Shown: piece by piece, positions 23,335-62,759 of the stretch
How the letters are laid out: each line of letters starts with the position of its first letter
How positions within the stretch are numbered: position 1 is the first letter of the stretch
From: Lingula anatina
Taxonomy: Eukaryota > Animalia > Brachiopoda
Direction of reading: 5' to 3'
Length of the DNA stretch: 64,000 nt
Assembly: GCA_051362555.1 (NCBI GenBank)
Contig: CM120645.1
Coordinates: 12,896,001-12,960,000 of the forward strand
The notes under the pieces: model-generated
The model's database searches: none
What the model was told of the DNA's origin: nothing
What the model saw: the letters and a program-made list of their open reading frames with translations, nothing else
Position numbers and translations under genes: made by a program

Positions 23335-23381
<47 letters not shown>

Positions 23382-26300: not shown

Positions 26301-28116
26301 ACACAAACAGCATGTGACATTTTCCTGCATTCCTGGATATCATTTCGCTGGCTATGACGTCGACTCACCATTTACGTCACAATGCATTGCGACTGAAACT
26401 CTGGAACCGCCAATACCTGACTGCATAAAGAGAACATGTAGTTTACCTCATTTAAACAATACAGTGACATATTCTGATAGCACGAATTTATTCTTCATGG
26501 CTTCAGTTCAATTCGAATGCATTAAAGGATTTCAATTTCCGGATGGTAATACCAGTGTAACCTTGATATGTGATGAAACCGGTGGATTTGGGGTGGATTC
26601 TCTTAGTTGTTCAGGTACGGGTTTTAATGAATATTTATAAAGTAATAAGCACTAGTACACTGAGAATCAGAGTAATTAGTGCGTTGTGCGCTCTGTCACA
26701 TAGATACGTTTAATTCAGGTTTTCTGCGCAGAGATGGAAAGGTATTCTAAAAACTGGTTGAGGAGATGATTTTTATAAATCCTTTTTCAAAAGAAATTTG
26801 TTAGTCGCGAATGCATATGAAATATTATATGCCACTGTAGAGGAAATTATTGTAATATAGTTTACCTAGTTTCAGGTAAAATTAGGGCAAAAATTACTTA
26901 TAGAGAAACTTCGCTATCTAGTGGAAAATATTTAAAGCTTACCTGTTTCCTTTTTACCATTCAGCGGTGTTGCCTGGTGCTGGCACCCAAGCCGCATTCA
27001 CAGACCCTAACAATAGTAACGTTGGTGTTAGTGTTGGTGTTGGCGTTACTGGGGCGATAGTGCTGATATTACTTGTTGTAACAGTTGTTGTATTCGTCAA
27101 ACGAAGACGGTAAGTGGCAACAAACCATACTGAGTTGTTTTATTTTATTTCTGTTAAAGTTAGTGATAGGGACGCACAATACATGTACAGGGTATATGTA
27201 AGAATGAAAATAGCGTTTACACTGTATAATAAATGAATGAGAAACTGGAGAAGTTGTCAGCATTTTACCTGTCATGCAACAACATTATAAAATATTACAC
27301 GTCCCACGAACCATATAATTAACACATTCCCTTTAATATTTATCCTTTAATGCATTTGCACTGGTGCACGTTGATGGTATCATTAAAATGTTTATATATC
27401 CGCCATGATCTATAAATTCGTTGGTTTTTAGATTTGTCTTTACATAAATATTGATATTCTACTCAACTTTTGTCTTTAACCTACTGGCTTATAATAGATA
27501 GGCCTACAGTTCTTACTTGAGGAGTTGCAAGTGTCTTTTTTTTTTTTTTGTTCGATTGATACATTTATTTATTTTTTTTGCGTTTAACGCATTGATTAGT
27601 AAATGGAACATTTTTCGTTTCAGGAAACAGATGTCAAACTCAAATGAAGATATCAATGTATCAAGAAACGGAGACCTCAGCAACACAATGTACACAGCAC
27701 CCAACACATATGTTGACACAAATCCATACGAACTCGAGGGAGAATGTCCAATGACAGACCGTTATGATCAGTCAAATAATATGAGACAGAATTCTAATAA
27801 CGAAAACCAGGCCTCTGATTCCAAGATGAACGTACAGGACCTATATGCCGTGCCAGACAAATCCAAAAAGACCAAAAAAGACAAGAAGCAACAAAATACC
27901 CCTGCAAGCTATCCAGACGATGCGTATGAATATGTCAAGAAACCTTCTGCCCAAGCATCTTCCGTTTCAAGACAGGATTGCAGTAGCACCTATGAACTTG
28001 CAGGGCAGTTTCAAAACGGAGGCTATGCCCAGTCTATCGATGATGCTGATGACGTGGAGTTTGTTGAAAACGATATTTATGAAACAGGAGGCGTTGACAA
28101 CATGGGCTATGCGTAA
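22577..28116 (+). CDS. Gene B: sushi-PAN-EGF-4x sushi-TM receptor with long (class II) Tyr-rich tail, ~662 aa
   Basis: GT-AG exons: 22577-22652 (signal peptide MKGLSNILKSSMIFCLIRGWQGIDA), 23710-23889 (sushi), 24447-24665 (PAN: CLQACNDDPTCDAVDWDGWCWFH..HYQMKQCP), 24970-25098 (EGF), 25686-25874 (sushi), 26057-26614 (3 sushi), 26965-27109 (TM VGVSVGVGVTGAIVLILLVVTVVVFVKRR), 27624-28116 (tail). The joined frame is open. Confidence 0.88.
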
Positions 28117-29015
28117 GATGAGTCAGTTGAAAACGACATTTTTAATTCTTCGGTGTAATTTCATTTTAGACCAGTTGCGGTCTTTTATGTTTCATATTTG
28201 GAAACCTGCTGATCTCAGTGCTTGCGCTACTGGTATGTTGGGACAAAAATGCCTATTATGGTGATTTGCTCCAACATACAAAATGTTCTTCATGATGTAA
28301 AGTTCAGCTGAGAAGCACTTTCTGGAAAACTTATGTAAGCCTATGTTCTGTATCCAAAGTTTGCTTACAGCGAAAATCCGTTTTTACCAACGATGATGTA
28401 TGTGGAGACTAAAAATTCGAAATCACAAATGGACAATAACCTGAAAAACTCCTTGTTAAGATATAGTTATGTACTTTTGTATAGAAATAAGCTCTACAAT
28501 TTTGTGGTGTTCAACGTCAAAGGATTTAGACTAATAGATATCCATAAAAACTGAGCTGTGATGACTTTATTGAAACTTTCTTCACCCATAAACATGTTGT
28601 ATATGGTGATTGTACATGATCATGGATTTCCTTATTAGTCAAATATTTAAATTTTTCCTCATTTAGTGATTGTTTCTAATAAAATCAAAGTATACTTGGT
28701 AGGTGACTTATAGGTGGAATAGACCGGGTATAAATGACAACATTAGTCTCTATGTTAAATTCATTACTACCTTTACCTCAGATGAAAATGAGTATTGTGA
28801 TATTTTTTACTGATGCACAGTATTATACAACAAATCCGAGATATATATTATGCCAATGGAAGCTAAAAGCAAAACACGTATGTAAATAACATGAAACATT
28901 CCACAAATAAATTAAAAATTAGTGGCATGTTGTCTAACAAAAATTAATAAAAACACTTGAAACTTCTTTGTTGCACGAGTGCAATTCGACTGTTAGTGGA
29001 AAAAGACATGTCTAA

Positions 29016-29809: not shown

Positions 29810-32800
29810 CTAGTCCTGATATATAACAGAGACTGATGGTTGTCGTTGATTACTTTCGTTTGCTGGCATGTCAAGAGCAGTATATGCACTGTCACTGACG
29901 TTAGCGTATTCAACCACGTTGTCATCTCTTGCCATAGTTTTGGCCTCCAGTGACATATACTCGTGATCCCTAGCAGCACTACCTGGCGGATTCAAACTGT
30001 TTTGGTTCAAACCAGAGGTGTCGCTGTGATCTGTGTCAGCAAACGGCTGAGAAGTGGGACTCCGTGTTCTGAATTCAAACGAAATTCAACAAGAAAAATT
30101 CTTAATTATTACCCCAAAAAAGTTTAAGAGCTGTAAAACATAACATCATGTATATTTAAAATAAGATCATCTTTGACTAAGAATAAATTTAAGATATTTT
30201 TTTTATTAAACAGAATCTGGTTATAACAAAAATGCCTTGCACTCTGATTACAAGCTTTATATTTTAGAACTTTGGTTTTACACTGTTATTTGTGTAATAC
30301 AATATCCTATTTTAATATTTCAAACATTATTTTCAAAAAAAAGAAAAAAAATCTTTGAAACCCCGAAGCTGCTACGTGTTAATAAATTATGTTTTAGCAG
30401 CTTTAGTAGGCGTGTCAGACATCTAAGCCACTTATGCTGATTGCAATTTAGCGAGAATCCACTTGAAAATGGGTCAATCCTGTCAGATCGAACAACACAC
30501 ACTGGACAATAGAAGTGTCACCCCTACTGAAACAATACTTTGGGGGAGATAAATGACTATGGAATGATATGCTCCTGGTATCATTTTATTAACATCAAAT
30601 TTCACAAAACGACCAACTATACAATTCCATGGTACAGCGGTTTTATACGCATTGGTCACATTATAAGTAGACCAGGCATTATAACTTTGATTACTCTGAA
30701 TCAGGGTGTGACACTTCTATTGTCCAATGTGTGTAGGTATGGGATCCCAGTTCGACTGACCTTTTTATGACAACCACAACTACCCCAACTAAGATCAGTA
30801 CCACTGCTGTAGATATCCAGCCACTGATGGCAACAGCCACAGGTACTTGTCCTAAAAAATATTACAGAGATTAAATTTACATTACAGTTGAGTTTATAGA
30901 CACTTCTATTTGATTTCAGTACATATTATATGCCGAATAAAAGACTGCAAGTTATATCTTATCTCAGTTACTTATTTTTGTGTTCCATTCATGTAAGTGC
31001 AGCTGGCTTTGCTCTTTTACTTAACACATAACACCCCAATAACTTGTTTTAATTTTTTATCATCATTCTCATATCATTACCTGTCAGTGCTTCTGGTGTG
31101 ACTTCTTCTCTTTGAATGACTGAAAATAAATAAATAAATGATTCATTTCGAAGGACATTTTATGGCTTTTGTTGTAATTATACAAACATTTTTCTCTTAT
31201 ACAAAGTGTGTGGCCATCACTTTTCGTTTATTTCGTTTATTTATTTACTAAAATGCGTTTTATCTTCTCATTCATACCAATTTCAAATTTCGCTTCATAA
31301 TACTTTCAAAAATTATTTTCTGACATTTTACGTCCAGTTTTTGCATTTCCCCAATTTTTTTCATGATGTTCGTATGTAAAAGCCTTTTAAATGAGCACGA
31401 ACTGGTCAATTTTCCTAGACATTTTATCACTCTCCTTAATGACTTAGTTATTCACATGAGTTCATGTAAAATTATAATCCATTACCGGATTTGAGTCACA
31501 CTTGTGATGGAGATTTAAACCGGTGGATTCCGCTTGTGATATTAAAATGATAGTAAGAAAAAAGGGATTTTGAACGAAGACGAATTCACGTATTGTAATT
31601 TTTCTGAGTGGGTCTAGATATATCATGGCGATTAAAGAAAAATGCTGAAATTTCCCAAGATAAATGTCTTTACTACATTGCCTTTATTTAATGCAACGTG
31701 AAAACAAACGAAGAGATGAAAAAAAAACGTCACATTTTGTCAGCACACATATGGACCTTCTACTACCAAACTCAAATTGAACTTACCAGGAGATCCACAC
31801 GATACGGGAACACAGCTAGGTAAACTCTGGTCAAATGTACCATCGGGTTGGCATGTTAGGTTCTTTACTGTTGAAGTGTTGTTGAATTGGAAGCCGGTGT
31901 TGCATGTATATGTGACAGTTTGTCCTTCAAAGGTAACGGAACGCTGTGTTATCTGTCTCTGATGATCACCTAAAGGAAGGACTTCACAGGTTCCTAGAAG
32001 TGGAGCAAAATTTTTCAACTTCTATTGCTATAACCTATTGCAGTTTAATGGTGTTGAGAACAAATATACACCAAATTACCACTAAAAGCATAACTGCATT
32101 TAAGATCAACCTAAAGAAAACGTCGACTTCTTTCATAATTTATGTTATCAATTTTCTATTTGATGTCTTCTTGATTTCAGGCTTACTCATGCATGTTTTT
32201 CTCTCCCCTTCAAACGATCCTCTGAGACTGCAAGTCAGTGTGAAACTGGAACCAGAACCATCGGCGAGTTGATACCCAATGTTACAGTTATAGGTAATAT
32301 TCCTTCCAAACCTGTAACCCCCAGTTGGTAGAGTGGGTGCTGCGTTGGAAATAGCCGGGGCAGCACATTCCACGTCTAAAAATATAGTGAATGTCTGTAA
32401 CGAAATCAATCCATGGCAACAATGGTGTAAAGGCGTTACTTCTGTAACAATTTGTTCAACTGTCCCCGATATGCTTTTATGGGCCTGTTCAGAAACAAGT
32501 TGATCCAACTGATCCCCGTAACAAATATATAGGTAAACCCCATGGAAGCTTTCCGTTTTTTCCTTAAATGGATTCTTCGCGGGTTCAAGTGGGTGGGCCA
32601 TATTTGAACCACGGATCTCTTAGTCAGCGGATCAACTTTGTTCTGAACAGGCCCTGATGAGACCATTTAAAAGAATATCATAAATATAAGGGTTAAATTA
32701 ATAATGAACCAACATTTTTACATTTTCTATATTACAGGATATCCGTCATATAAATCGTGTATTTCATTTTTATTGGAAGACATTCATGGTAGGGTAGACC

Positions 32801-35800
32801 GGGGCTAAACGCCCAGTCGGGGTCAAACGCCCACCCGCGTTTTTTTCAGGTATTACGTATAAATACGCGTCTCGTGATGTTTTGTCCACTTCCGATTTCC
32901 AGCAGACTTATCCTCCATGACGGAGATGACCACAAACTAAAAAATAAGCATTTTATGATAATTTGTTCATTTTTGCCTTGTTTACTGTTATTTAGCCTTT
33001 TCCTTAACATCAGTGACACCACCTACCAAATGCACGAATTCAAAAAACTTTGTTGGTGACAGATAGGATGGTATCAGACTTCCATACAAGTTTCGATGAA
33101 GTCAGATTGTATAAAACTTTTCCCGCCGAATTTTGAAAAAAAATACAAAATCTCACTTTGGGGCAAAACGCCCATGCTGATATGGGGCAAAACACCTATA
33201 GTGGGCGTTTTGCCCCGATCACTGGGCGTTTTGCCCCCTTTCGTTTTTAAATAAAAAATAATTCTAAAAAGATGCGGAAGTGTTCTTTCATGCATGTTTT
33301 TTATTGTATATCATCAGTTATAACACTTTTATGGGGAAAAGCCAAAGCAAGTGGCTGTACTAGGAACTTAATTTTGGAAGTATCACAGTGCCCTGTCGTA
33401 AAGAGTAGAATTACAGCTCATTCTGAATAAATTTGATGGGTATTTTTATTATCTCAGTACCCCAAAATATTATTTGTTGCTTTTAAAGGCTTACAAAGTT
33501 GTCTCGTAGAAATATAATTTGATTTTATTTTGCTTTGTAAAAAGGCGGGGCATAACGCCTATAGTTTGGGGCAAGACGCCCACGGTGGGCGTTTAGCCCC
33601 GTGGTGCGAGGCGTAATGCCCCAGCCATGGGGCAAAAAGGCCGATTTTATAATTTACCTATTTTTTACCTATAAGGTTGTTCTTTTGTTTGTTTCCAAAA
33701 GTGTTAGTATCAGTTTGTAGTCTAGTCAGACCTTCATAGTTAACACCCACTTTGAACGGTCTATACCTTCAGCAGGGAAAATTGTGATGTTTCTTGCTTA
33801 TGGGGGGTGTTTAGCCCCGGTCTACCCTAATTGCAAAATTAACTTCTTTATGGGTTGTGTTCCATCTGCCTCGTTTAATTTGAAACAGTTATCAAAATAT
33901 TCATAATAGTTATATCTTTTCTATAAAATGTGCACACTTAACTGTTCGTGTTTATATTTCCAAGAAAACGAAATATTTAAATTAAAATTTGAAATTGAAA
34001 TAGTTTGCATCACATTTTCAATAAAATATATATATATTTGTTTAGGTACCTATTTCTGTAGCCGTTGCATATTTAACTATTTGCGTATATCTTTGTACAA
34101 GAGACGCTTGAAACACAGTCTAGATTATAAAGTGTGACTAACAACATTGGAAAACAACGCCCCACTTACAATCAGAACACTTGTCACCGGTACGTCCCAG
34201 GTTACACACACACTCCTCTGAAGATATCTGTGTCTGTGAGGTGTATGTTCTCACACACGTTCCTCCTGTAGAGCAGGGGCAGTTGTAGGCGGGATTACCT
34301 GTAGAAAACATACCGTACCGTAGGTTACATATATTGAAGGTTATTTTTTTTTACGTAGCTAATTCCTGAAAGGCGCTATGACACACCACAAAGATGCTTC
34401 GAGCACCAGAGTGTTTCTGTAACTTTACTTTTCCGTCCCCATAGCATGTCCGTCGACACAAAGTAATAAATTGTATGCGAAAAAAAACCTAAACACATAC
34501 AATCGATTTGCATATTAGAATTACCTGTACATTGTTTCATTTGATAATGACGGGGACCAAGCCTATAGTAAAAAACATTGCACGACGTAGAACTGTGGAA
34601 CCAACAGTCTCCATCCCAGTCAACTGCGTCACATGCTGGGTCATCGTTACAGGCCTGTAAACAGCGGGATAATGGCTTATGGCTTGTATTTGAGCCTCCA
34701 TTGATGCCCTTATTTTCATATGCATACAACACGTACTCTGGCACTAAAATAAAATATTTTCATAAATAAGTATGTTATAGTCTGATCTTATTTTCTATAG
34801 TGTTTACAAGCTGTGTACCACATACACTATTTCATACACCCATCGATATAAATATAGCAAAAGAAAGACACAAAAATATATATCAAGTTCAGTACAACCA
34901 TGCAGTAATTCACATTCTTGTATTCATTAATTTCTCACCAACTTACCAGCTAAAAACAGTAACTGAACGAAACCAATCGATTGTATTAAATCCCCTTTAC
35001 ACTGGACGGCATCCTTTCTGCGTCCTTGAAACTGGGCAGGACACGGTTGGACGCTCAAAGAACGCACGGTGATCGCTTAGATCACACAAAGAACGTTCAA
35101 GGATAGCCCATAACGCCATGGTCGCCGTGAAGTTTTGAGCATGTTCAAATGGAGGATGGACGCTGTAAAGCCGTTCAAGGAACGCAGAGAAGACGCACAA
35201 GTATTGCCGTGGTCGCAGAAAGGAGGCACGGGCATCGCTTTGGTTGCCGAGTGAATGCTCAACGATCGACCAGTTGTCGGCAAGAAAATTATTCTTTTTT
35301 CACTCTCAAACCGGACGGCACTAGAGTACTTTTCACCAAAAAGAAAATCTTAGGGTGACAGCTGCTATTGGTCTCATGCCAGCCTCCAGTTGGTATGTTT
35401 TTCGTAAAATTCTTGAACTGATCCATTTTTGTAAGTTATCATTGAGAGAACATTTAGCTTTTTTTCAAAATGCAGTTGTTGCAGTTTTTGCACAATGCGT
35501 CTGTTGAATACGGATTCAAAAATTCTATGTTGTGTCAGTCAGCCTTTCTCGTCTTCAGCGCCTGTCCATCCGTCTTATAAGGACATCAATGATCATCTGG
35601 CTTATCAGTCCATGCAGACCTTGCATTGCTGTAGTTTGGAAAAGAAGTTTATTCCTTGTTAAGTTTCGTTACCTCGAGATGTTCTTAACTTGGTGACCGG
35701 ATTAGTACTGATGAAAAAATATAAAAGAGTCAGAATATATCTAAGGACGCCTAAACAACGCTCATCGGTCTAGCAGGAGGCATAAAGATCGTAGCATGGG

Positions 35801-37523
35801 CGCCACTGATCGCCGATGAAGGCATAGAACGCAACGAGGATGCTAAGTGGTCGCCTCCGGAAGACGGTCAGATTTTCAAGTTTACATTGACGTTTATCTA
35901 TTTTTTTTCCTTTGGAGGACAGTCAAAAATGGAGGATGGATCAACAAAGATAATTTGTAAGAGTCAGACTGTCAGAAAAAACTCTGGATCCACCCCTGGA
36001 CGCCGTAGGTCTCACAGGCAAGCACACCAGGTCGTTCACTGGACGCCCAGGTGGCTCGCAGTTTTACAGGTAATATCAAGATCGGCCGGCCGTTCAAAGT
36101 AGGCACACGGGACGCAGACGCCTCTAAACTGAGACATTTAATTGTTTTGGCGACCGTCTCAGCGTCCAAACGACATTTTTGAACGAAGAACACAGAAAGG
36201 ACGTCGGTGTAAAGGGGCCATTACGTAGCAGGTAGGTTAATCCAAGGATGCATTGTGTGTGTAAATTCCTTACGATATACTTTAAACCATGAAATGTTCG
36301 CCAAGTGGACCGATGCGAATAAGGTTTTCCCCAAACCCATGCAACACTCACACCAATCTATACACTGAGGGAAATTGGGGTGTCATATACCGAGAACACT
36401 AAGGAGCTACGGGCCCTGGATGCCCAGAATTCTCGGCTGGAGACCCCCTGCTAATAGGGGAATCCATAAACATTGCCTTTTTGAAATGTATGGAATATAC
36501 AATCATGTGGTGGAACTGACCAGACGGCCTTGTGGTGGTGTCCGCCTTTGGATCGGGGGGACGTGGGTTCCACTCCGTCCGGGGGCATAGGCCTATCGGT
36601 CCGTCAAAAACGATAGGGTGACCAACGCGACAACACCAAGTCTCCACAAGGACCAAAGATGACCACCCGAAACCCTGGGGTGTCCTGCTGATACATCTCA
36701 CTTGGATGCCCTGGATTCTCAAGACGATGTCCCCGGATTCTGAGGCTGATACCTATGGGTCTCAGTTTGGGGACCACTGCTGGATTCCCCTAAAGGTCTC
36801 TGGATGAAACCCCAATTTACCTCAGTGTTGTTTTATAAGTCAAAGCCTAAGTACACTTGTCTTGCTTCAAATGTTGTGTTAGAAACCATAATTTCATTTT
36901 AAAATAGGAATATTTCGCTTTTATAAAAAAATAAAAGATAAGAAATAGTACAGCGAATTAAAAATTTAGCAAAGAAAATAATCCACGCAAAAGAAATAGG
37001 CCTACTCACATCCACATACTGGTGGTTCCCTATCTAACACATCCTCTCTGTCAGTACACGTAATTTTAAGAGAGCCGTGTATGTGAATATATGGAGGTGT
37101 TAAACACGTGTAGGTAACATTTTGCTGACTGTTAACACGAACAGCAGCTGGAGATCGACTTGAATGAGGCACGTCTGGCACGACACAACCTGAAAGGTTA
37201 AATAATCAAGTAATCAAAATACTTTTTACATAAACGGATGCCTTTTTCATTTCTAGATCTGAAATACCAAATCAAAATTAGATCACCAACCTTACTTTAG
37301 AACATTCAAATATTTGGTTCATACACAAAAAAAAAAAACATTCGAAAATGCATACAATTTTATTTGGAATTAAAGAGTCCTTTAGATTTGTATTAGCACC
37401 TACTCTCAAGCTTTTATTGGACTTTACTACCGTAAGAAATATATTACCTGCGTCAGTTCCACGTAGGTCAAAGTTCAAACTGCACATAAAGAAAAATACA
37501 CACAGTTGTGACAATTCCTTCAT
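29810..37523 (-). CDS. Gene C: sushi-PAN-EGF-2x sushi-stalk-TM receptor with short (class I) Tyr tail, ~462 aa
   Basis: Exons (minus): 37523-37448 (signal MKELSQLCVFFFMCSLNFDLRGTDA), 37189-37010 (sushi), 34743-34525 (PAN), 34298-34170 (EGF), 32375-32187 (sushi), 31993-31787 (one sushi, donor G|gtaagt), 31119-31081 (IQREEVTPEALT), 30851-30761 (TM VPVAVAISGWISTAVVLILVGVVVVVIKR), 30068-29810 (tail EYMSL/EYANV/SAYTAL/IYQD). Frame is open. Confidence 0.82.
30496..30733. mobile_element. MITE nested in the agatcgatcta MITE of gene C
   Basis: TIR cacacactggacaatagaagtgtcac / gtgacacttctattgtccaatgtgtg, inserted at a TA that is empty in gene A (~7838). Confidence 0.75.
32792..33827. mobile_element. 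1-kb non-autonomous DNA transposon with TA TSD
   Basis: TIR gggtagaccggggctaaac / gtttagccccggtctaccc with TA on both sides, and many internal GGGGCAAAACGCCC-type motifs in both orientations. Confidence 0.85.
34992..36219. mobile_element. PIF/Harbinger-like non-autonomous element
   Basis: Ends cccctttacac / gtgtaaaggggcc. It contains a segment (~35860-36000) also found at 63290-63425. Confidence 0.6.
36363..36827. mobile_element. MITE with CACTG termini
   Basis: cactgagggaaattggggtgtcat / atgaaaccccaatttacctcagtg. Confidence 0.7.
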
Positions 37524-38520: not shown

Positions 38521-38812
38521 GTATAAAATATAAAATGGGTCACTTCCTTGTTCACAAAACTCCGCAGATAACCACCTACCTGGTAGGCCTCACTACACTT
38601 TGACAAGCCTTATATTGTAAGGTCTTTCAACAAAGAAAATTTGGCTATAGAAAAATTAGGGTTTGTACAGGTATAATACCTGTAACATGTACATTTGCTA
38701 TGATCAGTACATGAAAGCAGCAGAAAAGCCAAGATGTTCCGAGAAATTTAATATGCTTTGATGAAGATTGAATCATGTCTTTGATACAGTAAGAGCGCCC
38801 AGGCAAGTAAGT
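38521..38812 (+). promoter_or_regulatory. Putative promoter/5' UTR exon of gene D
   Basis: tataaaatgggtcacttccttg (CACTTCC at 38541-38547) and a downstream gtaagt donor; homologous to the B, E and F copies. Confidence 0.5.
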
Positions 38813-45808: not shown

Positions 45809-46599
45809 GCCTATATCAGAACGAAGTGTTAATTATTTAAGCCTATGTGCCTAATGGTACTAGACTAGACTAGACTGCGTCATATAATATGTCATTTTTT
45901 TGCAGAATGTATGCCATAACACAGGGCTTGTAGAGAAAACAGGTGTTATGTACCTATGAGGCTTCCCATGGTACCTAGTCCTGACCCCACGTGTACAGGA
46001 CAGCCCTTTCCGAAAATTTGACCCACTTACGCCACGCTAACCTTAACCTATGTGAATATAATTGAGGGCAAATTCTTTATATTTCTATATTCTTCTTCTA
46101 CTGACAATGAAATTGTGCTCGTGGAACATAGAAATCTCACGTTTTTAATATTATGCTACCTGTATGATCAGTTGTAATATTATTTGCGGTTCATTATTGT
46201 GAAATATTTCATTTTATGAACAGTTCATGTTTTGCTTTGAGTTTATATCACGCATAATATATTCTTCGACTTTATTGTACTATAATGTACGCCAGTAAAG
46301 TATAACAATACTCATTATTTACATCTGAAGTAATGGTAGTAGTTCACTCATTCTAGAGATTTATATTGTCATTTTTTTGCTGTCTATTGTACATAAATGT
46401 ATACGTCATCTACCTGTTCTGTATAATCAAGATGGTTATTTGCTTATTTTAGAGTTTATTATCAAAATAAACAGCCATGCCTATGACAAACTCACATTTT
46501 AGCCACTTTTGCAATATTCCATGCATATGCTAACATACATTTACCAAACGTATTTAGAGTATAAAAAAGATGAGTAATATATCATATTGTTCTTCGTGT

Positions 46600-49000
46600 A
46601 TAAAGCCGGGTAAGCAATCGCTATCATGAACAATAACATTCTGAACAGAACAGTGTTGTATAATGATACCTTCAGGAAATTGATGAAACTGTGCCGCAGA
46701 GTGATATACATGGATAGTAAAGACTAGATGCTACATATATATGGCGACGAATGATCGAGTTCAATCTAAACGTGACAAATAATGTTAATGATATAATCTA
46801 TTTACATACTTAATTTTTTGTTTCTCATATAGGGGTTACATCTTCATGTCACATTCGCATTTTATCCAAGGCAAGAAAATCAATCAAGGGGGTGACAGAC
46901 GCCTTAAAATCGCTATTCTACCAAATACGTGTATATTTAGGTTTATGTAACATTTTGAACAATTTTGTACAATTATTAAACATAAAAATACTGAAATATA
47001 TACTTTGATTCTTAAAAAATAGTTTGTAGGATTGATCAACTTTTAGGAAGAGATATCAAACCCCAAAACACAAAAGACGAGCAACCGACTGTATACCCTT
47101 ATGATTAAGGGGGTAGGGGTAAATTTTGATGTGTAGGTGACCACCCTGAAGCCAAGGTACCTATTGTATTATACCAAAAGAAAGGTCAACAATAACGGTT
47201 TTTTATTAATATTATTTGATGTATCAAACTTGCCACTCAAATGAAGCATATTCAGTTTGATATAATATAAAATATGTATCATCCCTGAACAATTTTGAGC
47301 AAAATAGGGCTATTTTTCACGGTTTTAAATGAGCTCTGATGGCAAAACTGATTTTATATTGTTATTTATGGATAAAAAAATAGGGAAATGCAATTTTCTA
47401 AGCCTTTGGTACATTAAGAGGGGCAAATGCCACGAAATACATGTATATGCAAAAAGATGCTAAAAATCCGTCATTTTCGAATATCGCAAACTTAAGAGGG
47501 TATGTACAGGGGGGTTAGAGAGGTTTTGAAATTCTGAAAAAAATCACTGTTGTATCACCCCCCAATATCACGCAGTGTTACTTCAATCAGGAAGTATGTC
47601 GCATGCTTTTTATTTCAATGTGAACTCGATTCCCATCCACCATGTATGTCTGTTGTCAATACATGTACGTCTGTTGTAAATCAACACCAGCATCTGAGAT
47701 GGTGTCAATATTTAAATCTACTTATATTAAGGTACAATTTAAAATTGTGAAAAGTGTGAAAACAGTGTGTGCTCTGCCTGCTCTCAGATAAAGGTGCCTG
47801 TAAAGAACATTAATCTGTTACATTACAAGTTTAACTTTATATTATCAACATCTGCAATATGAACAAACACCAGTGCGGTATCTTCATATATTACAGGACA
47901 GTGGCAACAGAGGTTGGTCCCATTGTTGTTCATGTTTACCTCTCCTCCTTAGCAGTGTTGTTGTGAACACGGAGCTACCCGTGCGTCGTGTAAAATATAA
48001 AACGGGTCACTTCCTTGTTCACAAAACTCCACAGATTCGCACCTAGGCCTCGCCACACTTTGACAAGCTTTATCTTTTTAAGGTCATTCAACAGTGAGAA
48101 ATTTGGCTATAGAAAAACTAGGGTTTGTATAATACCTACTAAATGTACATGCACTATAATCAGTACATAGAAACAGCAGAAAGGACAAGATGTTCCGAGA
48201 TCAGTGATGTAGATTGATCAGCACTGAATCGTGTAATAGTGTAACAGCGCCCAGGCAGGTAAGTGTATATGCTTTGACATGTTCTACTTAGCCTGAACCG
48301 CATTTCTCTCAAATTTTACCGACGTTATAAGGCCTACAGTGTATGTCATTAGAACCGTAAGAAGACCGCGTCATTACGATTTGTCACCAACCTACCTGTG
48401 GCAGAAGGGCGACACAACGATTACATTGGTCTTCTCTGTTGAGACATCTTAATAACACGAGCCAGGGTGGAGATACCAGTACAACCTAGGTTTATAAATT
48501 TTAAAAACCTTTTACAGTGAGCGTTATGTCTTGGACCCGTTTTCAAATAAGGTAGTATACGGACTGGACCTGTTCAATTTAATATATAGGTTGTAAATTG
48601 TATTTACGGTACGGGTTTGTATTTTTTACTCTCTTTCATCAGCCTACCCACAAGTTAAATTCCTACTGTTTAAGGGGAGGGAAATGAAGTTTAGGTGACT
48701 CTTATACGAAATAGCCAAGCTATCAAATTGTCACTTGCTTAAAACATACTGGTACAGGTGAGTCGCTTAAAGGTTTTTGATTTGGCAGTGGTGGGTTTGA
48801 AAACAAATGACCAGAGAGGACGAACACTCCTTCGGAACACCACATATAAGGAGGGTACATGTACTAGTAGCTAATAAAAAGTACATAACAAAAAGCCTTG
48901 CTACCTTATCAGAACTTACTCAACGAGAAATGTTAATAAGTTACAATAAGTGTAGTAATACAGTAATGCTACAGTACCTAGGATTATTTGCTTCCTTGTT
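46600..49000 (+). repeat. Intergenic block duplicated between D-E and E-F
   Basis: Colinear with ~54280-56760 (e.g. atggcga.gaa.gatcgagttcaatctaaacgtgacaaataatg; caaaagacgagcaaccgactgt). Confidence 0.85.
47990..48264 (+). promoter_or_regulatory. Putative promoter/5' UTR exon of gene E
   Basis: tataaaacgggtcacttccttg and donor cag|gtaagt at 48258. Confidence 0.5.
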
Positions 49001-49549: not shown

Positions 49550-49724
49550 ATGAAAGGACTGTCGAACATTTTAAAATCTTTTGTGATATTTTGTTTACTT
49601 CGTGGATGGCAAGGAAGCCACGCAGGTAAATAGAACTAGTTTTCACACGGGATGCACACGTGTACGTGTATACCCTTTTTTCCTCTCCACAATATACAAC
49701 CCATCCCCCGTCTCCCCCCTAAAA

Positions 49725-49755
<31 letters not shown>

Positions 49756-52700
49756 ATAGAATGCGCGACATGAGACAAAAGAGGAAAACATTCTCCATTC
49801 GTTTGCCCTGCATATTACAATAAAAACATCATTTTCTACTGATTTATGTATTTTAGCAGATGCAAGGCGAAGCACTCTTCATTCATTTCCCCTCCCCCTT
49901 TTACATCTTACCAAAATCCTGGATCATACAGCGCATGCGTTTACTTACTTCAAAAGTTCAATTATTTTGCATGGTAGTTACTATGTTGAGTCTGACTAGA
50001 AAGGGAAGTGGTTGCGGCAACAGAATTTACGAAATAGTTATCCCCGCCAATAAACGGGTTTTATGAAACTACCTTGTATTTTCATTACGTTATGTTTGTG
50101 ACTGGTGATTTTATTTATCTGCGATACTCTGTCTGCCGAACACTGGTGATACTCAGATTCTATAATTTCTAGAAGGCAATGCATTCGCAAAAAATGGGAT
50201 TAGATTGTACCTTTATCTTACCCAGTCACATAGTAGACATGATTTATATCTTTTACTTTTTTGTACACCCAGTAAAGCACTAATTGACGTTGAAAGCCTA
50301 ATGACATTACTTTCACAGGGTTATTCAACTTCTACCTTCGGGCCTGATTTTGATATACAAGAAAATAGTCTACGTTGACATATTTCTTACATCTTAAAAA
50401 GTGTAAAATTCAAAAATAAAACTAATTATTCATCATTTTGTATTGAAGGTTGTGTCGTGCCTAACGTTCCTCATTCGAGACGAACTCCAACTGCTGTCCG
50501 TGTGAACAGTCACCAAAGTGTTACCTACACGTGTGTTACTCCTCGATATCTCCAAATATACGGTTCTCTTACAATCACGTGCACTGACAGAGAGAATGCG
50601 TTTGATAGGGAACCGCCAGTATGTGGATGTGAGTATTCCTATTTTGTGGATATTGTGCTGGAGAATACTACCGAATAAAAAAAAGGTTTTCTTTAATAAT
50701 TTTCTTGAATATGATGTGGAATATTTTATCTACAATGCATTGTGTAGAACTGTGGAAACCGTGAAGGCAACTACCCTGTAACTCTAACCTCAAACATATA
50801 TATTTCTGAAAATCTTCTGTTTCAGTGCCAGAGTACGTGTTGTATGCATATGAAAATATAAGCATCAGCGGAGGCTCGCGGAACAGTTATTGGCCACTAT
50901 CCCGCTGTTTACAGGCCTGTAACGAAGACCCAGCATGTGAGGCAGTGGACTGGGATGGAAGGTGTTGGTTTCTTTACAGTTCATCGTCGTGCAATGGATT
51001 AAGATTTGTAAGCAACGTTCGTCACTATCAAATGAAACAATGTCCTGGTAAGATGCAAATCGAAATGATTTTTAGTTCACCATTTTATTTAGATATTTAT
51101 TTATTTATTTATTTTATTTCATTAATTTTTCTTTTTGCATATTATCTCATGGAAGTGAATGGGAGGCCTAAGTAAAGTAAGTTAAAGTATTGAGAAAGTA
51201 AAAATGACGTCCGTGTGTCATAGAATACGGTCAATATCTTTGAAATACACCCAACACCATTTAGAAATGAGCTATACTTACGTAATCACAAATACTCGTT
51301 AATTATCCAGCAGCTTCCTTTATTAGCTAAGAAGTTACCAAAGACTCGATTTGCTTACATCAGGTAATCCCGCCTACAACTGCCCCTGCTCTACTGGAGG
51401 AACGTGTACAAGAACATATACCTCATGGACACAGATATCTTCACAAATACAGGTACCTTCAGAGGAGTGTGTGTGTAACCTGGGACGTACTGGTGACCAG
51501 TGTCTTGGTTGTGAGTGGGACTTTGGTTTTTATTGTTATTTGTCACACTACATAATTGAGATCGAATCCGAGCATCGCCTGTACAAAAGGTGCGTCCATG
51601 TAGTTTATTGTATCGGCTACATGAATATGTGTCTGAAAATGTTACGCCTTAGACAGAAAAATGTGATGCCAACTACATGTATTTACGAAAACCCTTACAC
51701 ATGTTTCAAAATTAAACAGCATATGCATACACGTGGATCACACAAATGGTCCCCTCTTGAAATTAGAATTTTGAATATCTGAATCATAGTTACATGTATA
51801 AAATGTACCAAATGGCATCGTTTGCCTTTTAAAATACCAAAAAAATTCGGGGCACGCTGAAGGGGAGGGGGGCGTCGGCTTCGCATAAGCAGACCCCCCT
51901 TCAAATAATCCTGGATCCGCCTCTTAAGATATCGCTATTACATTTATCATGAACGTCTTCTAATACAAATAAAATTAATAAATAATACATTAAATGTAAG
52001 GGGAAATCATCAATATATAAGTTTTTTGTGCAACCAAGTGGTTACTATTGCGACTGATGGATTTCTTTACAGATATGCACTTTGTTTTTAGATGTGAAAT
52101 GCAATACTCCGACTTTTCCCAATGCAGCCCCCTCTCCAGTACCTGGAGGTTACATATTTAAAAGCACTGTTACCTATACTTGTAACAGTGGGTATCAACT
52201 CAGAGATGGTTCTGGTAACAGTTTCACACTGACTTGCGGTCCTAGAGGAACGTTTGAAGGGGAGAGAAAAACATGCAACAGTAAGTCAAAAAGACAACAA
52301 TGTTACAAAATAAGAACAGATTAATAATTCGAAATGAAATAGTCGGCTGCAGGTTGGCCCTTATTACGATTATGCTTCTGGGGATAATTATTGTCGGTGT
52401 TATTAGGCTTTGAATATACTCAAGTGAAATGAAGATATTAAAAAATTACTCCACTTCCAGGAACCTGTGACCTTCCTGTAAGTGATCACCTGAGACAGGT
52501 AACACAGCGTTCCGTTACCTTTGAAGGACAAACTGCCACATATACATGCGTCACTGGCTTTCAATTCAACGACGCGTCAACAGTAAAGAACCTAACTTGT
52601 CAAGCCGATGGTACATTTGATCAGAGTTTGCCTAGCTGTGTTCCCATATCGTGTGCATTTCCTACCAGTAAATTAAACTTGAAGACAGTAGAAGGACCAT

Positions 52701-54015
52701 ATGTTTACATGCAGAATGTGACGTTTTCTTGCATTCCTGGATATCATTTCGCTGGTTATGACGTCGACGCGCCATTTACGTCACAATGCATCGCTACTGA
52801 AACTCTGGAACCGCCAATACCTGACTGCATAAAAAGAACATGTGTTTTACCTCATTTAAACAACACGGTAGTGAGATCTCAAAGAGAGGATCTGTTCTTC
52901 ATGACATCAGCTGAATTCAAATGCATGCAAGGATTTCGATTCCCGGATGGTAATACCAGTATAACCTTGATATGTGATGAAACTGGTGGATTTGGGGTGG
53001 ATTCTCTGAGTTGTACAGGTACGTATTAAGGGATGTGTATAGTGGGTGTCCTCTTGGATCCCCATGCAGATTGACTTGGTCAGACAGGTGTCTTCAATTA
53101 AAAACATTGCCCACTATAATACAATGATGCTCTGGGTACGTGTGATCCTGTATAATGCTGTTATAGTTTTTGTTGAAATACTTTTTGCTACATATTAGGT
53201 TACTTGTTACATTTGTGTCACGTTTGTATTTATATTCATAAAATGATTAAATGATAAACCACTTGACGTATTTTCATACGAAATATAAGGTTTATTTTCG
53301 TGGAAAATTTGCTATCTAGTAAGGCAAAAAAGAAAAATGATTGATAATTTTTTTTCAATTTTGCCATTCAGAGACGTTGCCTGAAGCTGGTGCCAAGGCA
53401 GGATCCGCAGACCCTAACATTGGTGTCAGTGTTGGTGTGGGCGTTACTGGAGCGATAGTGTTGATATTAATTGCTGTTATAATTGTTGTATTCATCAAAT
53501 GTAGACGGTTAGTGGTGTAGTACCATTAAAATCTTGTTTTATGTATTTCTATCAAAAATAGCGATAGAGGGTTTGTGTATAATAAAAGGGAGATGTTTAT
53601 GACATCTGTGATTGAAAACTTGACGTGTGATATATTATAGCAGTATAAACGCAACATGTCACACGAATATTCCTCCTCCCTATCGTTCTTCCTTCAACCC
53701 ACTTGCTGATAATTAGTAAATGTGAACTATTGTATTTTGTTTCTATTCAGAAAACAATGCTACGCTTCCCAGTCGTCCAAGGCCGTTAACGCTGATCTAA
53801 GCGGCACCTCAGAGTTATACCAAAACAGTTTGAGTCCGCCAGACAGTGCTGAGCGCGAGTATATGTCACTGGAGGCCAATACTATGGCAACAGTTAGCAG
53901 CGTGGCTGAATATGCCAACGTCAATGACAGCACATATACTGCTCTTTGCATGTCAGCAAACGAAGCCAAACAACGACATCCAACAGCTGCTGGTGTATAT
54001 CAGAACGAAGTGTAA
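49550..54015 (+). CDS. Gene E: sushi-PAN-EGF-4x sushi-TM receptor with class I tail, ~590 aa
   Basis: Exons 49550-49625, 50449-50628, 50826-51047, 51364-51510, 52092-52280, 52461-53018, 53372-53507 and 53751-54015 (tail ELYQNS..EYMSL..EYANV..STYTAL..VYQNEV*). All are GT-AG and the frame is open. Confidence 0.88.
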
Positions 54016-55877: not shown

Positions 55878-56160
55878 GTAAAATATAAAATGGGTCACTT
55901 CCTTGTTCACAAAACTCCGCAGATACGCACCTAGGCCTCGCCACACTTTTACAAGCCTTCCTTATCTTTTTAAGGTCATTCAACAGAGAGAAATTTGGCT
56001 ATAGGAGAACTAGGGTTAGTATAATACCGGTTACATGTACATGTGCTATATTCAGTTCATGTAAGGAGCAGAAAAGGGAAGATGTTCGGAAAGCATTGAT
56101 GTAGATTGATCAGGATTGAATCGTGTCTTTGATAGTGTATGAGTGCCTAGGCAGGTAAGT
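55878..56160 (+). promoter_or_regulatory. Putative promoter/5' UTR exon of gene F
   Basis: tataaaatgggtcacttccttg and donor cag|gtaagt at 56154. Confidence 0.5.
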
Positions 56161-57574
56161 GTAAATGTTTTGTACAGTAAGTGACATGTTCTATTTAGCC
56201 TGAACCGTATTTCTCTCAAATTTTACCGACGTTATAAGGCCTACGGTGTATGTACATGTATACTAATTAGAGACCGCGTCATTACGATTTGTCACCAGCC
56301 TACAGTACCTGTGGCAGAAGGGCGACACAACGATTAGATTGTCTTCTCTGGTGAGACATCTTAATAACACGACTTAAAGGCAGGGGGTGGAGATACCAGT
56401 ACAACCTAGGTTTATAAATTAAAGCCTTTTTACTGTGAGCGTTATGTCTTGTACCCGTTTTCAAATAGGGTAGTATACGGACTGGACCTGTTCAATTTAA
56501 TATATAGGTTCTAAATTGTATTTTCGGTACGGGTTTTTTTTTTTTTTTTTTTTTTTTACTCTCTTTCATCAGCCTACCCACAAGTTCAATTCCTACTGTT
56601 AAGGGGGAGGGGAATGGAGTTTAGGTGACTCTTATACGAAATAGACAAGCTATCAAATTGCTTAAAACATACTGGTACAGGTGAGTCGCTTTAAAAATGT
56701 CTTTGATTTGGCAGTGGTGGCTTTGAAAACAAATGACCATGGAGGACGAACACTCTTTGAAAAAGATCGGTCCGTCTGTTTGTTTTTTAAGTTTGTCTGT
56801 TACATGTAGCACTGTACAGGTCGCAGTTTTGATCAAATCACTTCCATTTTCCCTGAAGGGGTACAGTGTATCCAAACAAGTATGTGACAGGACGTTTTTG
56901 GGGTCATTCGGTGCATTTTCACGTGAGAAGTAGCAATAAGATGCTCTACTTCTGGAAGTGCAAAAGCTCTTGCTTGTTGCATTTTGTAGATCATGTCAAG
57001 CGCAACACTGATATGTGGCGTCCGTTTTTCCCCAAACGCTTTAGGAGATGCGCTATTTTAAAAAAGTATACGTCGCAATGTTCAGTGGTGAGCAATGGTG
57101 GAAATTATATCACCAGAACCGGCACATATATCCCCTGAGTACTATATTACACTGAATTTGAATAGGAACTCATATATTGACAATCCTACTGTGACCTTGA
57201 ATTTGACCTTTGACTTTCTTTTCACCATGGCCTGAACATTCCAGCCCTTATATTTCCAAAACTGGCAAAGGTACTACCATTATCACACATGTTACTTATC
57301 ACATTTATGCATACAATTACACTTGTATGATAGCAATACGAATAAGAAGTCACACATGAGCTTTTATTTAAGTATCTTCAAGATCACATCCGAATCCGCT
57401 TGTTTTTTCTGTCTTTTTATATTGCTCTTATTGTCGGTGGTTGTTTCATAAGTGTTTACACGTCAGTGTGATTTTTCATTTTATTGTTTATATGCCGTTT
57501 ATTAAATAATGTATTTACCTATTTATTCAGCTATTTATTTATTACATAAAGCTGTACATAGTAAGTGTTTGTTT

Positions 57575-57609
<35 letters not shown>

Positions 57610-57785
57610 TTTTTTTTTTGTAACGTGCTTAAAAATACGTGTTTCTTTGTTTATAACATTTATCCTTCGTTTTAGAAGACATTGTTAATTGATAATGAGA
57701 TAAATGATATTATCCAAGCATGGATCCTTGTTTTCCGCATCAAAATACATTTACTTGACATTTATTACAGGGAGAGGACAACGAG

Positions 57786-60700
57786 ATGATGGAAGGACTG
57801 TCGAGCATTTTAAGATCATCTCTGATATTTTGTTTACTTCGTGGATGGCAAGGAAGCCAAGCAAGTAAGTGGAACCAGGTACTTTGTACGTGTACGCCCT
57901 TTCTCCTCTCCCAACTCTACTCCCCCATCCCCCATCTCCCCAAAAAATAATTAAATAAATAAAATGCGCGACAGGAGACAAAAGAAGAACACATTCTCCA
58001 TTCGTGTGCCCTGCATATTTCAATAAGCATCCTTCTCTACTGAATTATGTGGTTTAGCAGATGCAAGGCGAACCACTCTTCATTCATTTCCCCGCCCCCT
58101 TTTACATCTCTCAAAATCCTGGATCATACAGTGCATGCGTTTACTTATTTCAAAAATTTAAGATTGTTGTCTTTTTGCATGGTAGTTACTATGTTGAGTT
58201 TGACTAAAAACCGTTGTCACCCAGAATTTCTCCTGGGAATCGAAGTGGTTTCGGCACCAGGATTTACGAAATAGTTTTCCCCGCCAATAAACGGGTTTTA
58301 TGTAACTATTTTCATTACGTTATGTTTGTGACTGGTGACTTTATTTATCTGCGATACTCTGTCTGCCGAACACTGGTGATTCTCAGATACTATAATTTCT
58401 AAAAGGCAATGCATACGCAAAAAATAGGATTAGATTGTACGTTTATCTTACCCAGTCACATAGATGACATAGTTTATATCGTTTACTTTTTTGTACACCC
58501 AGTAAAGCACTAAATGACGTTGAAAGCCTAAAGACATTACTTTCACAGGGTTATTCAACTTCTACCTTCGGGCCTGATTTTGAAAAACAAGAAAAATAGT
58601 CTACGTTGACATATTTCTTACATCTTTAAAAGTGGAAAATTCAAAATTGAAACCAATTATTCATCATTTTGAATTACAGGTTGTGTAGTGCCTAACGTTC
58701 CTCATTCGAGACGAACTCCAGCTGCTGTCCGTGTGAACAGTCACCAAAGTGTTATCTACACGTGTGTTACTCCTCCATATATCCATATATACGGTTCTCT
58801 TACAATTACGTGTACTGACAGAGAGGATGTGTTTGATAGGGAACCGCCAGTATGTGGATGTGAGTATTCCCATGTTGTGGATATTGTGCTGGAGATTACT
58901 ACTGAATAAAAAACAAAGGTTTTCTTTAATAATTTTTTTGAATATGATGTGGAATATTTTATCTACAATGCATTGTGTAGAACTGCATGTGGAAACCGTG
59001 AAGGCAACTAACTCTAACCTCAAACATATATATTTCTGAAAATCTTCTGTTTCAGTGCCAGAGTACGTGTTGTATGCATATGAAAATATAAGCATCAGCG
59101 GAGGCTTACAGAACAGTTATTGGCCATTATCCCGCTGTTTACAGGCCTGTAACGAAGACCCAGCATGTGAGGCGGTGGACTGGGATGGAAGGTGTTGGTT
59201 TCTTTACAGTTCTTCGTCGTGCAATGGATTAAGATTTGTAAGCAACGTTCGTCACTATCAAATGAAACAATGTCCTGGTAAGATGCAAATCGAAATGATT
59301 TTTTAGTTCACCATTTTATTAAGATATTTATTTATTTATTTATTTATTTATTTTATTTCATTAATTTTTCTTTTTGCATATTATCTCATGGAAGTGAATG
59401 GGAGGCCTAAGTAAAGTAAGTTAAAGTATTGAGAAAGTAAAAATGACGTCGGTGTGTCATAGAATACGGTCAATATCTATGAAATACACCCAACACCATT
59501 TAGAAATTACCTACTTACGTAATCACAAATACTCGTTAATAATCCAGCAGCTTCCTTTATTACCTAAGAAATTACCAAAGACTCGATTTGTTTCCATCAG
59601 GTAATCCCGCCTACAACTGCCCTTGCTCTACTGGAGGAACGTGTATAAGAACATACACCTCATGGACACAGATACCAGTATTTTCACAGGAGTGTGTGTG
59701 TAACCTGGGACGTAATGGTTACCAGTGTCTTGGTTGTAAGTGGGACTTTGGTTTTTATTGTTATTTGTCACACTACATAATTGAGATCGAATCCAAGCAT
59801 CGCCTGTACAAAAGGTGTGTCCATGTAGTTTATTTTATCGGCTACACGAATATGTGTCTGAAAATGTTACGCCTTAGATAGAAAAATGGTTGCAAACTAT
59901 TTATAAAAATCCTTACAACTGTTTCAAAATTAAACAGCATACACATGGACTACACGAATGGTCCCCTCTTGAAATTAGAATTTTGACTAGCTGAATCATA
60001 GTTATAAAATATACCAAATTCCACCGTTTGCCTTTTAAAATACCAAATAATTTCGGGGCCCTTCAGCGTGCCCCGAACCACACGCCAAGGGGAGGGGGGC
60101 GTCGGCTTCGCATAAGCGGACCCCCCTTCAAATAATCCTGGATCCGCCCTGAAAGATATCACTATTGCATTTATCATGAAGATCTTATAATACAAATGAA
60201 ATTAATAAATAATACATTAAATGTAAGGGGAAATCATCAATATAGTATAAGGTTCTTTGTGCAGCCAAGTGGTCACTATTGCGACTGATGGATTTCTTTA
60301 CAGACATGCACTTTGTTTTTAGTTGTGGAATGCACTGCTCCGACTTTTCCCAATGCAGCTCCCTCTCCAGTACCTGGAGGTTACAGATTTAATAGCACTG
60401 TTACCTATACTTGTAACAGTGGGTATCAACTCAGAGATGGTTCTGGTAACAGTTTCACACTGACTTGCGGTCCTCGAGGAACGTTTAAAGGGGAGAGAAA
60501 AAAATGCAACAGTAAGTCAAAAAGACATCAATGTTACAAAATAAGAACAGATTAATAATTCGAAATGAAATAGTCGCCTGCAGGTTGGCCCTTATTACGA
60601 TTATGCTTCTGGGGATAATTATTGTCGGTGTTATCAGGCTTTGAATATACTCAAGTGAAATGAAGATATTAAAAAATTACTCCACTTCCAGGAACCTGTG

Positions 60701-62759
60701 ACCTTCCTGTAAGTGATCACCTGAGACAGGTAACACAGCGTTCCGTTACCTTTGAAGGACAAACTGTCACATATACATGCGACACTGGCTTTCAGTTCAA
60801 CAAAACGTCAACAGTAAAAAACCTAACTTGTCAAGCCGATGGTACATTTGATCAGAGTTTGCCTAGCTGTGTTCCCATATCGTGTGCTTTTCCTACCAGT
60901 AAATTAAACTTGAAGGCAGTAGAAGGACCTTATGTTTACATGCAGAATGTGACATTTTCTTGCATTCCTGGATATCATTTCGCTGGTTATGACGTCGACG
61001 CGCCATTTACGTCACAATGCATTGCGGCTGAAACTCTGGAACCGCCAATACCTGACTGCATAAAAAGAACATGTACTTTACCTCATTTAAACAACACGGT
61101 GGCGAGGGCTGAAAGTAAGGGTCTATTCTTTATGACATCAGTTGAGTTCAAATGCAGACAGGGATTTCAATTCCCGGATGGTAATACCAGTGTAACCTTG
61201 ACGTGTGATGAAACTGGTGGATTTGGGGTGGATAATCTTAATTGTACAGGTAAGAGTTTAAACTGTGGATTTGGGGTGGATAATCTTAATTGTACAGGTA
61301 AGAGATTAAGGAATATTTATTAAGTATTTAAGTACTAGTACTTAGAGAATCAGAATAATGAGCGCCTTGTCCGCTTTTACAAAGCAGACTGAAGGATGTG
61401 TGATTCTGTGAAAAACTTATTACTTTTCTTAAATATTGTTTGCTGTGTGTAAAGTTACATAGCTCTTGGCGACTACGTACTATTAATACAGGTTTTGTGT
61501 GCAGAGATGGAAAGGTATTCTAAAAACTGATTAAAGAGTTGATTTATAAATACTTTCAATAGAAGTTTGTTAGTCGTGAATACTATTGGGAATTATTGTA
61601 ATATAGTTGACCTTTTTTCAGGCAATATTTACTTATAAAGAAACTTAGCTATCTAGTGGAGTATATAAAATAGTTAAAGCCTACCTAACTATTTCATTTT
61701 TATCATTCAGCGGCACTGCCTGAGGCTGGTAACCAAGCAGCATCCACAGGCCCTAACATTGGTGTCAGTGTCGGGGTGGGCGTAACTGGAGCGATAGTGC
61801 TGATATTACTTGTTGTTATAGTTGTTGTATTCGTCAAACGTAGACGGTAAGTGGCAGCAAACCATACTGAGATGTTTCATTTCACTTTTGTTAAAGGTAA
61901 TGATAGGACTGGGTCTCACCAATACCATATAACCATATAATTAAGACATTTCCTTTGATGTTTGACCTTTTATGCATTTGATGCACATTGATGATGTCAT
62001 TTAAATGTATTTATATCCGTCCTGATCTATAAATTCGGTTGTTAGATTTGTTTTTACTTAAATATTGATATTCTACTCATCGTTTGTTTTTAGCCGGCAG
62101 GCTCATAATGGGCACAGTTCTTACTTGAAGAGTTGCAGTGTCTATTTTTTATTCGATTGATACATTTATTTATCTATTTTGCCTTCAATGGATTAATTAG
62201 TAAATGGAACGTTTTTCGTTTCAGGAAACAGATGTCAAACTCACATGAAGATATCGATGTATCAAGCAACGGAAAGCTCAGCAGCACAATGTACACAACA
62301 TCCAATACTCATGTTGACACAAATCTGTACGAACTCGAGGGAGAATGTCCAATGGCAGGCCGGTATGATCAGTCAAATAATATGAGACAGAATTCTAATT
62401 ACGAAAACCAGGCCTCTGATTCACAGATGAACGTACAGGATCTATATGCCTTGCCTGACAAATCCAAAAAGACCAAAAAAGGCAAGAAGCAACAAAATAC
62501 TCCTGCAAGCTATCCAGACGATGCGTATGAATATGTCAGCAAACCTTCTGTCCAGGCTTCTTCCGTTTCAAGACAGGATTGTAGTAGCACCTATGAACTT
62601 GCAGGGCAGTTTCAAAATGGAGGCTATACCCAGTCTATCGATGATGTTGATGACGTGGAGTTTGTTGAAAACGATATTTATGAAGCAGGAGGCGTTGACA
62701 ACATGGGCCATACATGTGTTGAGTCAGTTGAAAACGACATTTATAATTCGTCAGTGTAA
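57786..62759 (+). CDS. Gene F: sushi-PAN-EGF-4x sushi-TM receptor with class II tail, ~677 aa
   Basis: Exons 57786-57864, 58680-58859, 59056-59277, 59601-59735, 60323-60511, 60692-61249 (alternative donor 61297), 61711-61846 and 62225-62759 (tail ..DLYALPDK..VENDIYE..VENDIYNSSV*). Frame is open. Confidence 0.87.
61217..61304 (+). repeat. 48-bp tandem duplication of the exon end and splice donor in gene F
   Basis: gtggatttggggtggataatcttaattgtacaggtaagag occurs twice, 48 nt apart. Confidence 0.9.

Follow-up and report, generated by a model that had tools for sequence, protein, structure and literature searches.

Similar ectodomains joined to two unrelated tyrosine-motif tails in a sushi/PAN-like receptor gene cluster of the brachiopod Lingula anatina

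Paired receptors of vertebrates include KIR, LILR/PIR, PILR, SIRP, Ly49 and NKG2 (as given in the accessible part of PMC3533184), and the homogenisation of vertebrate leukocyte receptors within the limits of their ectodomains has been called "merohomogenization" (PMC3210942, same restriction). A window of 64,000 nucleotides from Lingula anatina (contig CM120645.1, positions 12,896,001 to 12,960,000 of the forward strand) contains six related single-pass receptor genes in the order and orientation A(-) B(+) C(-) D(+) E(+) F(+), clustered within 60 kb (exon models built by coordinates) at about 38% GC. Their shared ectodomains, made of sushi and PAN-like domains, have been joined by recombination to two unrelated tails with tyrosine motifs, class I in A, C, D and E and class II in B and F. 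The cluster may well be a paired-receptor system; the probability of this reading is put at about 0.5.

Like vertebrate paired receptors, the Lingula genes form a small cluster, carry similar ectodomains on differing tails, show homogenisation that is limited to the ectodomain and ends near the membrane, and have the ITIM consensus (immunoreceptor tyrosine-based inhibitory motif) in one class, as a sequence match that is weak for each single tail. Unlike them, they have sushi and PAN-like rather than Ig or C-type lectin ectodomains, belong to a protostome, and possess a long, tyrosine-rich second tail where the vertebrate counterpart is short and accompanied by a charged transmembrane residue. 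Because the second class lacks a short tail with a charged transmembrane residue and also lacks an ITAM (immunoreceptor tyrosine-based activation motif), the cluster is not classed as a member of the paired receptors as defined in the portion of PMC3533184 available. Ectodomain-limited homogenisation across differing tails, known as a signature of leukocyte receptors in vertebrates, is found here in a brachiopod on an unrelated ectodomain; if the reading is true, the paired-receptor solution would have arisen convergently in protostome recognition.

In the CEACAM1/CEACAM3 pair (accessible text of PMC5112662), each partner likewise signals through its own tail with no adaptor chain; the Lingula class II tail differs in lacking an ITAM-like double YxxL, and the ectodomains are unrelated. 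The Botryllus FcoR family (PMC12582321, in part) is also an invertebrate receptor family and combines a sushi domain with tails bearing an ITIM or hemITAM, head-to-gene pairing and copy-number variation, but it belongs to the Ig superfamily and its motif swaps arise by alleles and splicing within one tail, whereas the Lingula swap involves two tail exons that are non-homologous; the main text of that paper has no hits for the term "gene conversion". Hydractinia Alr (bioRxiv 2022.03.04.482883, in part) resembles the Lingula cluster in its invertebrate host and in related ectodomains with diverse tails bearing ITIMs or ITAMs, and differs in its Ig/Fn3 ectodomains and true ITAMs; gene conversion is raised there as a possibility only. 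The Biomphalaria GRC/PTC2 genes (PMC13712769 and PMC7494358, in part) are lophotrochozoan clusters of unstable single-pass receptor genes with other ectodomains, and ITIM and ITAM have no hits each in the main text of PMC13712769. Selectins, which head the structure matches in the ESM Atlas (TM 0.34), share the series of recognition domain, EGF, sushi repeats and transmembrane segment, whereas the Lingula genes lack a C-type lectin domain and have an additional N-terminal sushi domain and long tyrosine-rich tails. In these sources, the nearest invertebrate cases are Botryllus FcoR and Hydractinia Alr, both Ig-based, and the nearest lophotrochozoan ones are the snail transmembrane clusters. No account of the Lingula family or of such lophotrochozoan pairs was found in open-access papers; subscription papers and supplements may differ.

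Exchange of tails between similar ectodomains

Genes B (22577..28116, + strand; class II tail), E (49550..54015, + strand; class I tail) and F (57789..62759, + strand; class II tail) have intact models encoding open proteins of 662, 590 and 676 amino acids (aa), respectively. All three are laid out as signal peptide, sushi, PAN-like, EGF-like, sushi, three-sushi exon, transmembrane exon and one tail exon. The model of E rests on a GT/AG exon chain, an open frame and Pfam matches to sushi and, weakly, PAN, and that of F on RNA joints. The two tail classes are non-homologous, as a first-pass annotation of the DNA had proposed (BLASTP E=2.7, hhalign probability 0.1%, best hmmsearch --max E=0.088).

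The same annotation described the ectodomains of E and F as almost identical. This is accurate for the PAN-like domain (97%; 2 of 73 residues differ) and overstated for the mature ectodomain as a whole (394/445 aa, 88.5%) and for its last sushi domain (79%); the other nine pairs among B to F have ectodomain identities of 72-81%. The PAN-like domain is the most variable of the family, with 51-81% identity in 27 of 28 pairs, against 97% in E/F.

Site patterns in the quartet B, D, E and F place an approximate switch of E from F-like to D-like sequence at 52885..53018 (+ strand), in the last sushi domain of the three-sushi exon. Before the switch, 98 informative sites group E with F and B with D, versus 20 that group D with E and B with F; after it the counts are 5 versus 116. 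The resulting chi-square of 151.7 was reached by none of 2000 permutations (239 of 253 informative sites were used, the 14 third-pattern sites being left out). Between adjacent bins E-F identity falls from 94% to 66%, whereas E-D identity is steady near 88%. Gene E, which resembles F between the signal peptide and the last sushi and D from there on, is almost certainly a mosaic.

The D-E spacer (46635..48832) is homologous to the E-F spacer (54281-56758), as expected if unequal crossover made E, and the two differ in 292 of 2148 columns (13.6%). In the introns from the first sushi up to the three-sushi exon, E and F differ in 65 of 1246 columns (5.2%), less than the spacers (p=1e-15) and less than the D/E intron past the switch (39/346, 11.3%; p=2e-4). 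With three such values a single event cannot account for the ages, and later gene conversion between E and F would be the simplest reading of the intron and spacer divergences. Unequal crossover between D-like and F-like genes would have placed E between D and F together with a duplicated spacer, and subsequent conversion would have maintained the likeness of E to F, with its strongest effect on the PAN-like domain. A further conversion tract, common to B, E and F, spans an intron, the second sushi exon and another intron of B (25099..26056, + strand): the B-F introns differ by 5.0% and 2.8% within it, versus 31-37% upstream and 17-18% downstream. Repeated homogenisation across the two classes is highly probable.

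Among named proteins, seven Lingula anatina RefSeq models (P0001-P0003 and P0005-P0008) come closest, the sole further match being one sushi protein at 31%. Two of these models share a 490,344-base contig: P0001, with a class II tail, and P0003, with a class I tail. Over two sushi domains their identity is 93%, against 68-75% to the six other rows (pair support 100/99). Ectodomain trees that hold class II together are rejected, with a p-AU of 1e-45 for the two sushi domains (eight rows; A and P0005-P0008 were left out for want of one or both domains) and 0.0018 for the PAN-like domain. The proposal that different tail classes sit on similar ectodomains is borne out by the sharp recombination switch, the rejected grouping by tail class, this second cross-class pair and an RNA joint that links a transmembrane exon with a class II tail; tail swap with cross-class homogenisation is real and repeated. 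The transmembrane exon is joined to a class I tail in the RefSeq models P0002, P0003, P0007 and P0008. In P0002, this tail follows a transmembrane segment of class II type (87-88% identical to those of B, F and P0001), which, provided that the automatic model is correct, would mark a third breakpoint. The RefSeq name of P0002 and P0003, SVEP1, was rejected: of the domains looked for, no vWA or pentraxin and only sushi was found at E<0.01, and a transmembrane segment is present, whereas SVEP1 is secreted.

A search with the class II tail among longer proteins returned one protein among 387 candidates, from Lingula, and a search with the class I tail against 1.84 billion representatives found seven, three of them Lingula family members. 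Four class I tail matches (P0009-P0012) proved on reading to be unrelated repeat proteins. Only Lingula members of the family were matched, and as far as searches of this sensitivity go it seems confined to Lingula.

Nine RNA runs were chosen by species label. At 82% likeness, three bulk runs (X7-X9) contain joints at or adjoining all seven modelled introns of F, including the predicted splice between transmembrane exon and class II tail (61845-62224, GT..AG; 19 reads, and 8 reads in another listing); reads less than 95% alike support the structure of the family rather than these exact copies. In X7-X9, RNA depth on the class I tail of E (53816-54169) is about 6-13 for each mate direction. Both tail classes are thus transcribed in the same three runs; X1, X4 and X5 have near-zero depth on the family genes.

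Tail motifs and predicted signalling

The class I tail exon of E (53751..54015, + strand) encodes ELYQNS, EYMSL, EYANV, STYTAL and YQNEV; those of C (29810-30068, - strand), D (45358-45830, + strand) and A (from 7276, - strand) are exon models. Class II tails are 161-179 aa long overall with 10-12 tyrosines. Those of the cluster lie at 27624-28116 in B (+ strand, 165 aa) and at 62225..62759 in F (+ strand, 179 aa), the latter with NLYEL, DLYALPDK, DDAYEYV, STYEL and two VENDIY. All motifs listed in the first-pass annotation are present at the places given, except that ELYQNS, put forward for all class I tails, is confined to D and E, with GLNQNS in its place in A and C. The class I motif unit is duplicated internally in D, P0002 and P0003, which doubles the ITIM-like sites. 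The tail of B ends 14 codons before that of F, and a second VENDI unit persists just past its stop (28117-28158); the same short and long endings are found in P0001 and P0005.

All eight class I tails and none of the four class II tails match the ITIM consensus, in the form given in the accessible text of the Hydractinia Alr paper (D scored by its first unit, A up to its insertion). One match arose in 18% of 5000 shuffles of a tail of E's composition, and two matches, as in C, in 0.4%. YxN sites occur in 8/8 class I tails and 1/4 class II tails; as Grb2 sites they were rejected as a class marker, being significant in E and not in C. Class II tails have YxxP in all four cases and are enriched in NxxY (p=0.01-0.03). 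Their nearest ESM Atlas clusters include PAG/LIME1 adaptors, a weak lead; the best Atlas scores (0.77-0.78) are below the lead threshold.

The expectation that tyrosine motifs would be more conserved than their surroundings was modestly upheld for class I, in which four of five tyrosine columns are invariant versus 20/86 overall (p=0.01 over ten repeat units; p=0.002 in an earlier test without the fifth column), the permutation of mean conservation giving p=0.066. The ratio of nonsynonymous to synonymous substitutions (dN/dS) in the tails is below 1 (0.43 for B/F, 0.42-0.89 for class I pairs). Among exons, the second sushi exon (43475-43663 and its homologues) has the highest pooled dN/dS, 0.89, with several pairs above 1.

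In the proposed paired-receptor mechanism, ligand-driven clustering and phosphorylation of the tails by Src-family kinases would precede effector binding, and one ligand would elicit a dampening signal via class I tails and a different, likely adaptor-driven signal via class II tails. Being the most variable domain in the family, the PAN-like domain is likely to be the specificity domain. The motifs EYxSL, EYxNV and SxYTxL of class I are predicted to recruit tandem-SH2 phosphatases of the SHP/SHIP type, and YAVP, acidic YEYV and NxxY in the 10-12-tyrosine class II tails may recruit Crk, Nck or PTB-type adaptors directly, without an ITAM adaptor chain; both predictions follow the binding preferences of SH2 and PTB domains. 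A shared ligand with different outputs is probable, and an immune role is slightly favoured. Strictly opposite polarity of the two classes can be proposed only tentatively. Still more doubtful is the complete scenario of independently evolved protostome paired immune receptors, with sushi/PAN parts, an inhibitory ITIM tail, an adaptor-free activating tail and pairs kept by recurrent conversion. The sequences suggest paired-receptor-like evolution in a protostome, with a polarity predicted from motifs. ITIM-SHIP2 signalling has been reported for an oyster receptor (PMC11841013, in the part available). With a near-identical PAN-like domain and unrelated tails, E and F offer a natural experiment, and a direct test of tail function is therefore possible.

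Competing readings of the cluster

Several observations weigh against a paired-receptor system. ITAMs are absent from all 12 tails examined, and no charged residue lies inside the hydrophobic transmembrane segments, so that the activating half of the classical definition has no counterpart in class II. The loose hemITAM-like DDAYEYV, present in three of four class II tails, does not reach significance (p=0.06-0.07), and one of the eight class I tails has such a match as well. The ITIM counts of 8/8 and 0/4 are not independent because the tails are close relatives, and class I tails contain YxN sites (three in E, p=0.007) with potentially positive signalling. In class II, where greater conservation of the tyrosine motifs had also been expected, the tyrosine windows are no more conserved than their flanks (40/49 versus 82/112, p=0.32), and no domain has a dN/dS clearly above 1 (pooled 0.32-0.89). 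Of the six genes, two (A and D) are broken. The exon joins of P0001-P0003 come from automatic gene models and were taken as modelled. A class I joint between transmembrane and tail exons is not among the RNA joints listed (the best 15 of 51, and 11 in another listing), and most RNA reads are less than 95% alike and therefore derive from other alleles or paralogues.

The main rival explanation is neutral: tandem paralogues would recombine wherever they are homologous, tracts would end near the transmembrane exon through divergence, and both tails would be SH2-docking scaffolds with overlapping outputs and no selection on pairs. Introns are indeed homogenised along with exons, the intron past the three-sushi exon is just 60-68% alike between classes, a within-class B/F tract is also present, A and D are decaying and positive selection is not clear. 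Neutral exchange sits less easily with cross-class near-identity in two separate ectodomain lineages (E/F and P0001/P0003), with the best-homogenised domain being the most variable of the family, and with ITIM matches that sort wholly by class; it is considered unlikely, if the most serious competitor. Selectin-like adhesion or matrix receptors without an immune role or opposite outputs are a less probable alternative still. They would bind the same ligand, with class I tails driving SHP2/Grb2 growth signalling and class II tails acting on the cytoskeleton or endocytosis. The layout of recognition domain, EGF, sushi and transmembrane segment fits this idea, as do the YxN sites of class I, the NxxY and YxxP sites of class II, the presence of sushi and PAN in shell-matrix domain lists (in the available text of PMC13425148) and the P-selectin cluster as nearest Atlas structure row, although the TM of that row is only 0.34. 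Recognition clusters, however, more typically show rapid turnover, pseudogenes and mosaic copies than structural adhesion genes do, and four of the RefSeq accessions and two UniRef codes were not found in the one supplement searched, whose identifier system may differ.

An artefact, in which the assembly would have fused D and F haplotypes into a chimeric E or the tail exons would be foreign to these genes, is very improbable. Heterozygosity of 1.6%, the figure given for the L. anatina genome (PMC4595640, accessible part), would favour such a chimera, but over its length E shows a divergence of 3-11% from F and 10-28% from D and so copies neither. Moreover, the tail exons are in frame after the transmembrane exons with GT/AG sites, the class II joint is present in RNA, and RefSeq models from another assembly carry both joins.

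Gene models, broken copies and flanking blocks

Sushi domains of the family have Pfam support. The PAN_1 profile matches four of five copies of the PAN-like domain weakly (best E=0.0045, displayed scores below the curated cut-off); AlphaFold predictions for this domain are of low confidence (pLDDT 35.5, and below 50 across the PAN-like region in a second model), and its comparison with solved structures gave no match below E=0.35. The EGF-like label is based on cysteine spacing, with no Pfam match. Pfam searches of the family proteins gave no match to the Ig family, although divergent Ig folds could escape them, and the cysteine patterns are of sushi type; Pfam found sushi and weak PAN only, and no N-terminal C-type lectin domain.

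Genes A and C differ from the other genes in their transmembrane exon, have a stalk mini-exon and are shorter in the ectodomain. The open model of C (29810..37189, - strand) comprises sushi, PAN-like, EGF-like, two sushi, stalk mini-exon, alternative transmembrane exon and class I tail; it is shorter than B, E and F because a donor inside the three-sushi exon is used, followed by a 39-nt stalk exon and another transmembrane exon. Such internal donors (31787-31993 in C and 8351-8542 in A, both on the - strand) shorten the ectodomains of C and A, and likewise that of RefSeq P0001. Long and short ectodomain forms may also arise from splicing.

Gene D (40822..45830, + strand) is a probable pseudogene: its PAN-like exon has an in-frame TGA at 42630, and its class I tail is duplicated internally, the second unit being frameshifted. 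Gene A (7033..15813, - strand), of C-like architecture, is probably also a pseudogene. Its second sushi exon is split into two pieces about 4.4 kb apart by unrelated sequence (8766-13150), and leaving this exon out yields a stop. In its class I tail, a transposon-like insertion of 2.2 kb (4815..7032), flanked by TA and bounded by 28-nt perfect inverted repeats, separates the terminal YQDEM (4811) from the rest; this displaced end, with its stop, lies at 4794..4814 (- strand). An open reading frame in the insertion (5452-5694) has a weak paired-box match (E=0.01), and the element is presumably Tc1/mariner-like.

A conserved block lies 5' of each + strand gene (20150-20750, 38350-39000, 47850-48450 and 55700-56330). 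On the - strand it contains candidate signal-peptide exons for C (38680..38776; a hydrophobic open frame with a phase-1 GT donor at its end) and for A (20464..20542); upstream of E and F, which have no head-to-head partner, it has an in-frame stop. With a + strand donor at a distance of some 125 nt and with transcription of the block, A/B and C/D, the head-to-head pairs, may have overlapping 5' exons. High-copy transcribed repeats at 56897-57270 and 63258-63425 draw many partly matching RNA reads.

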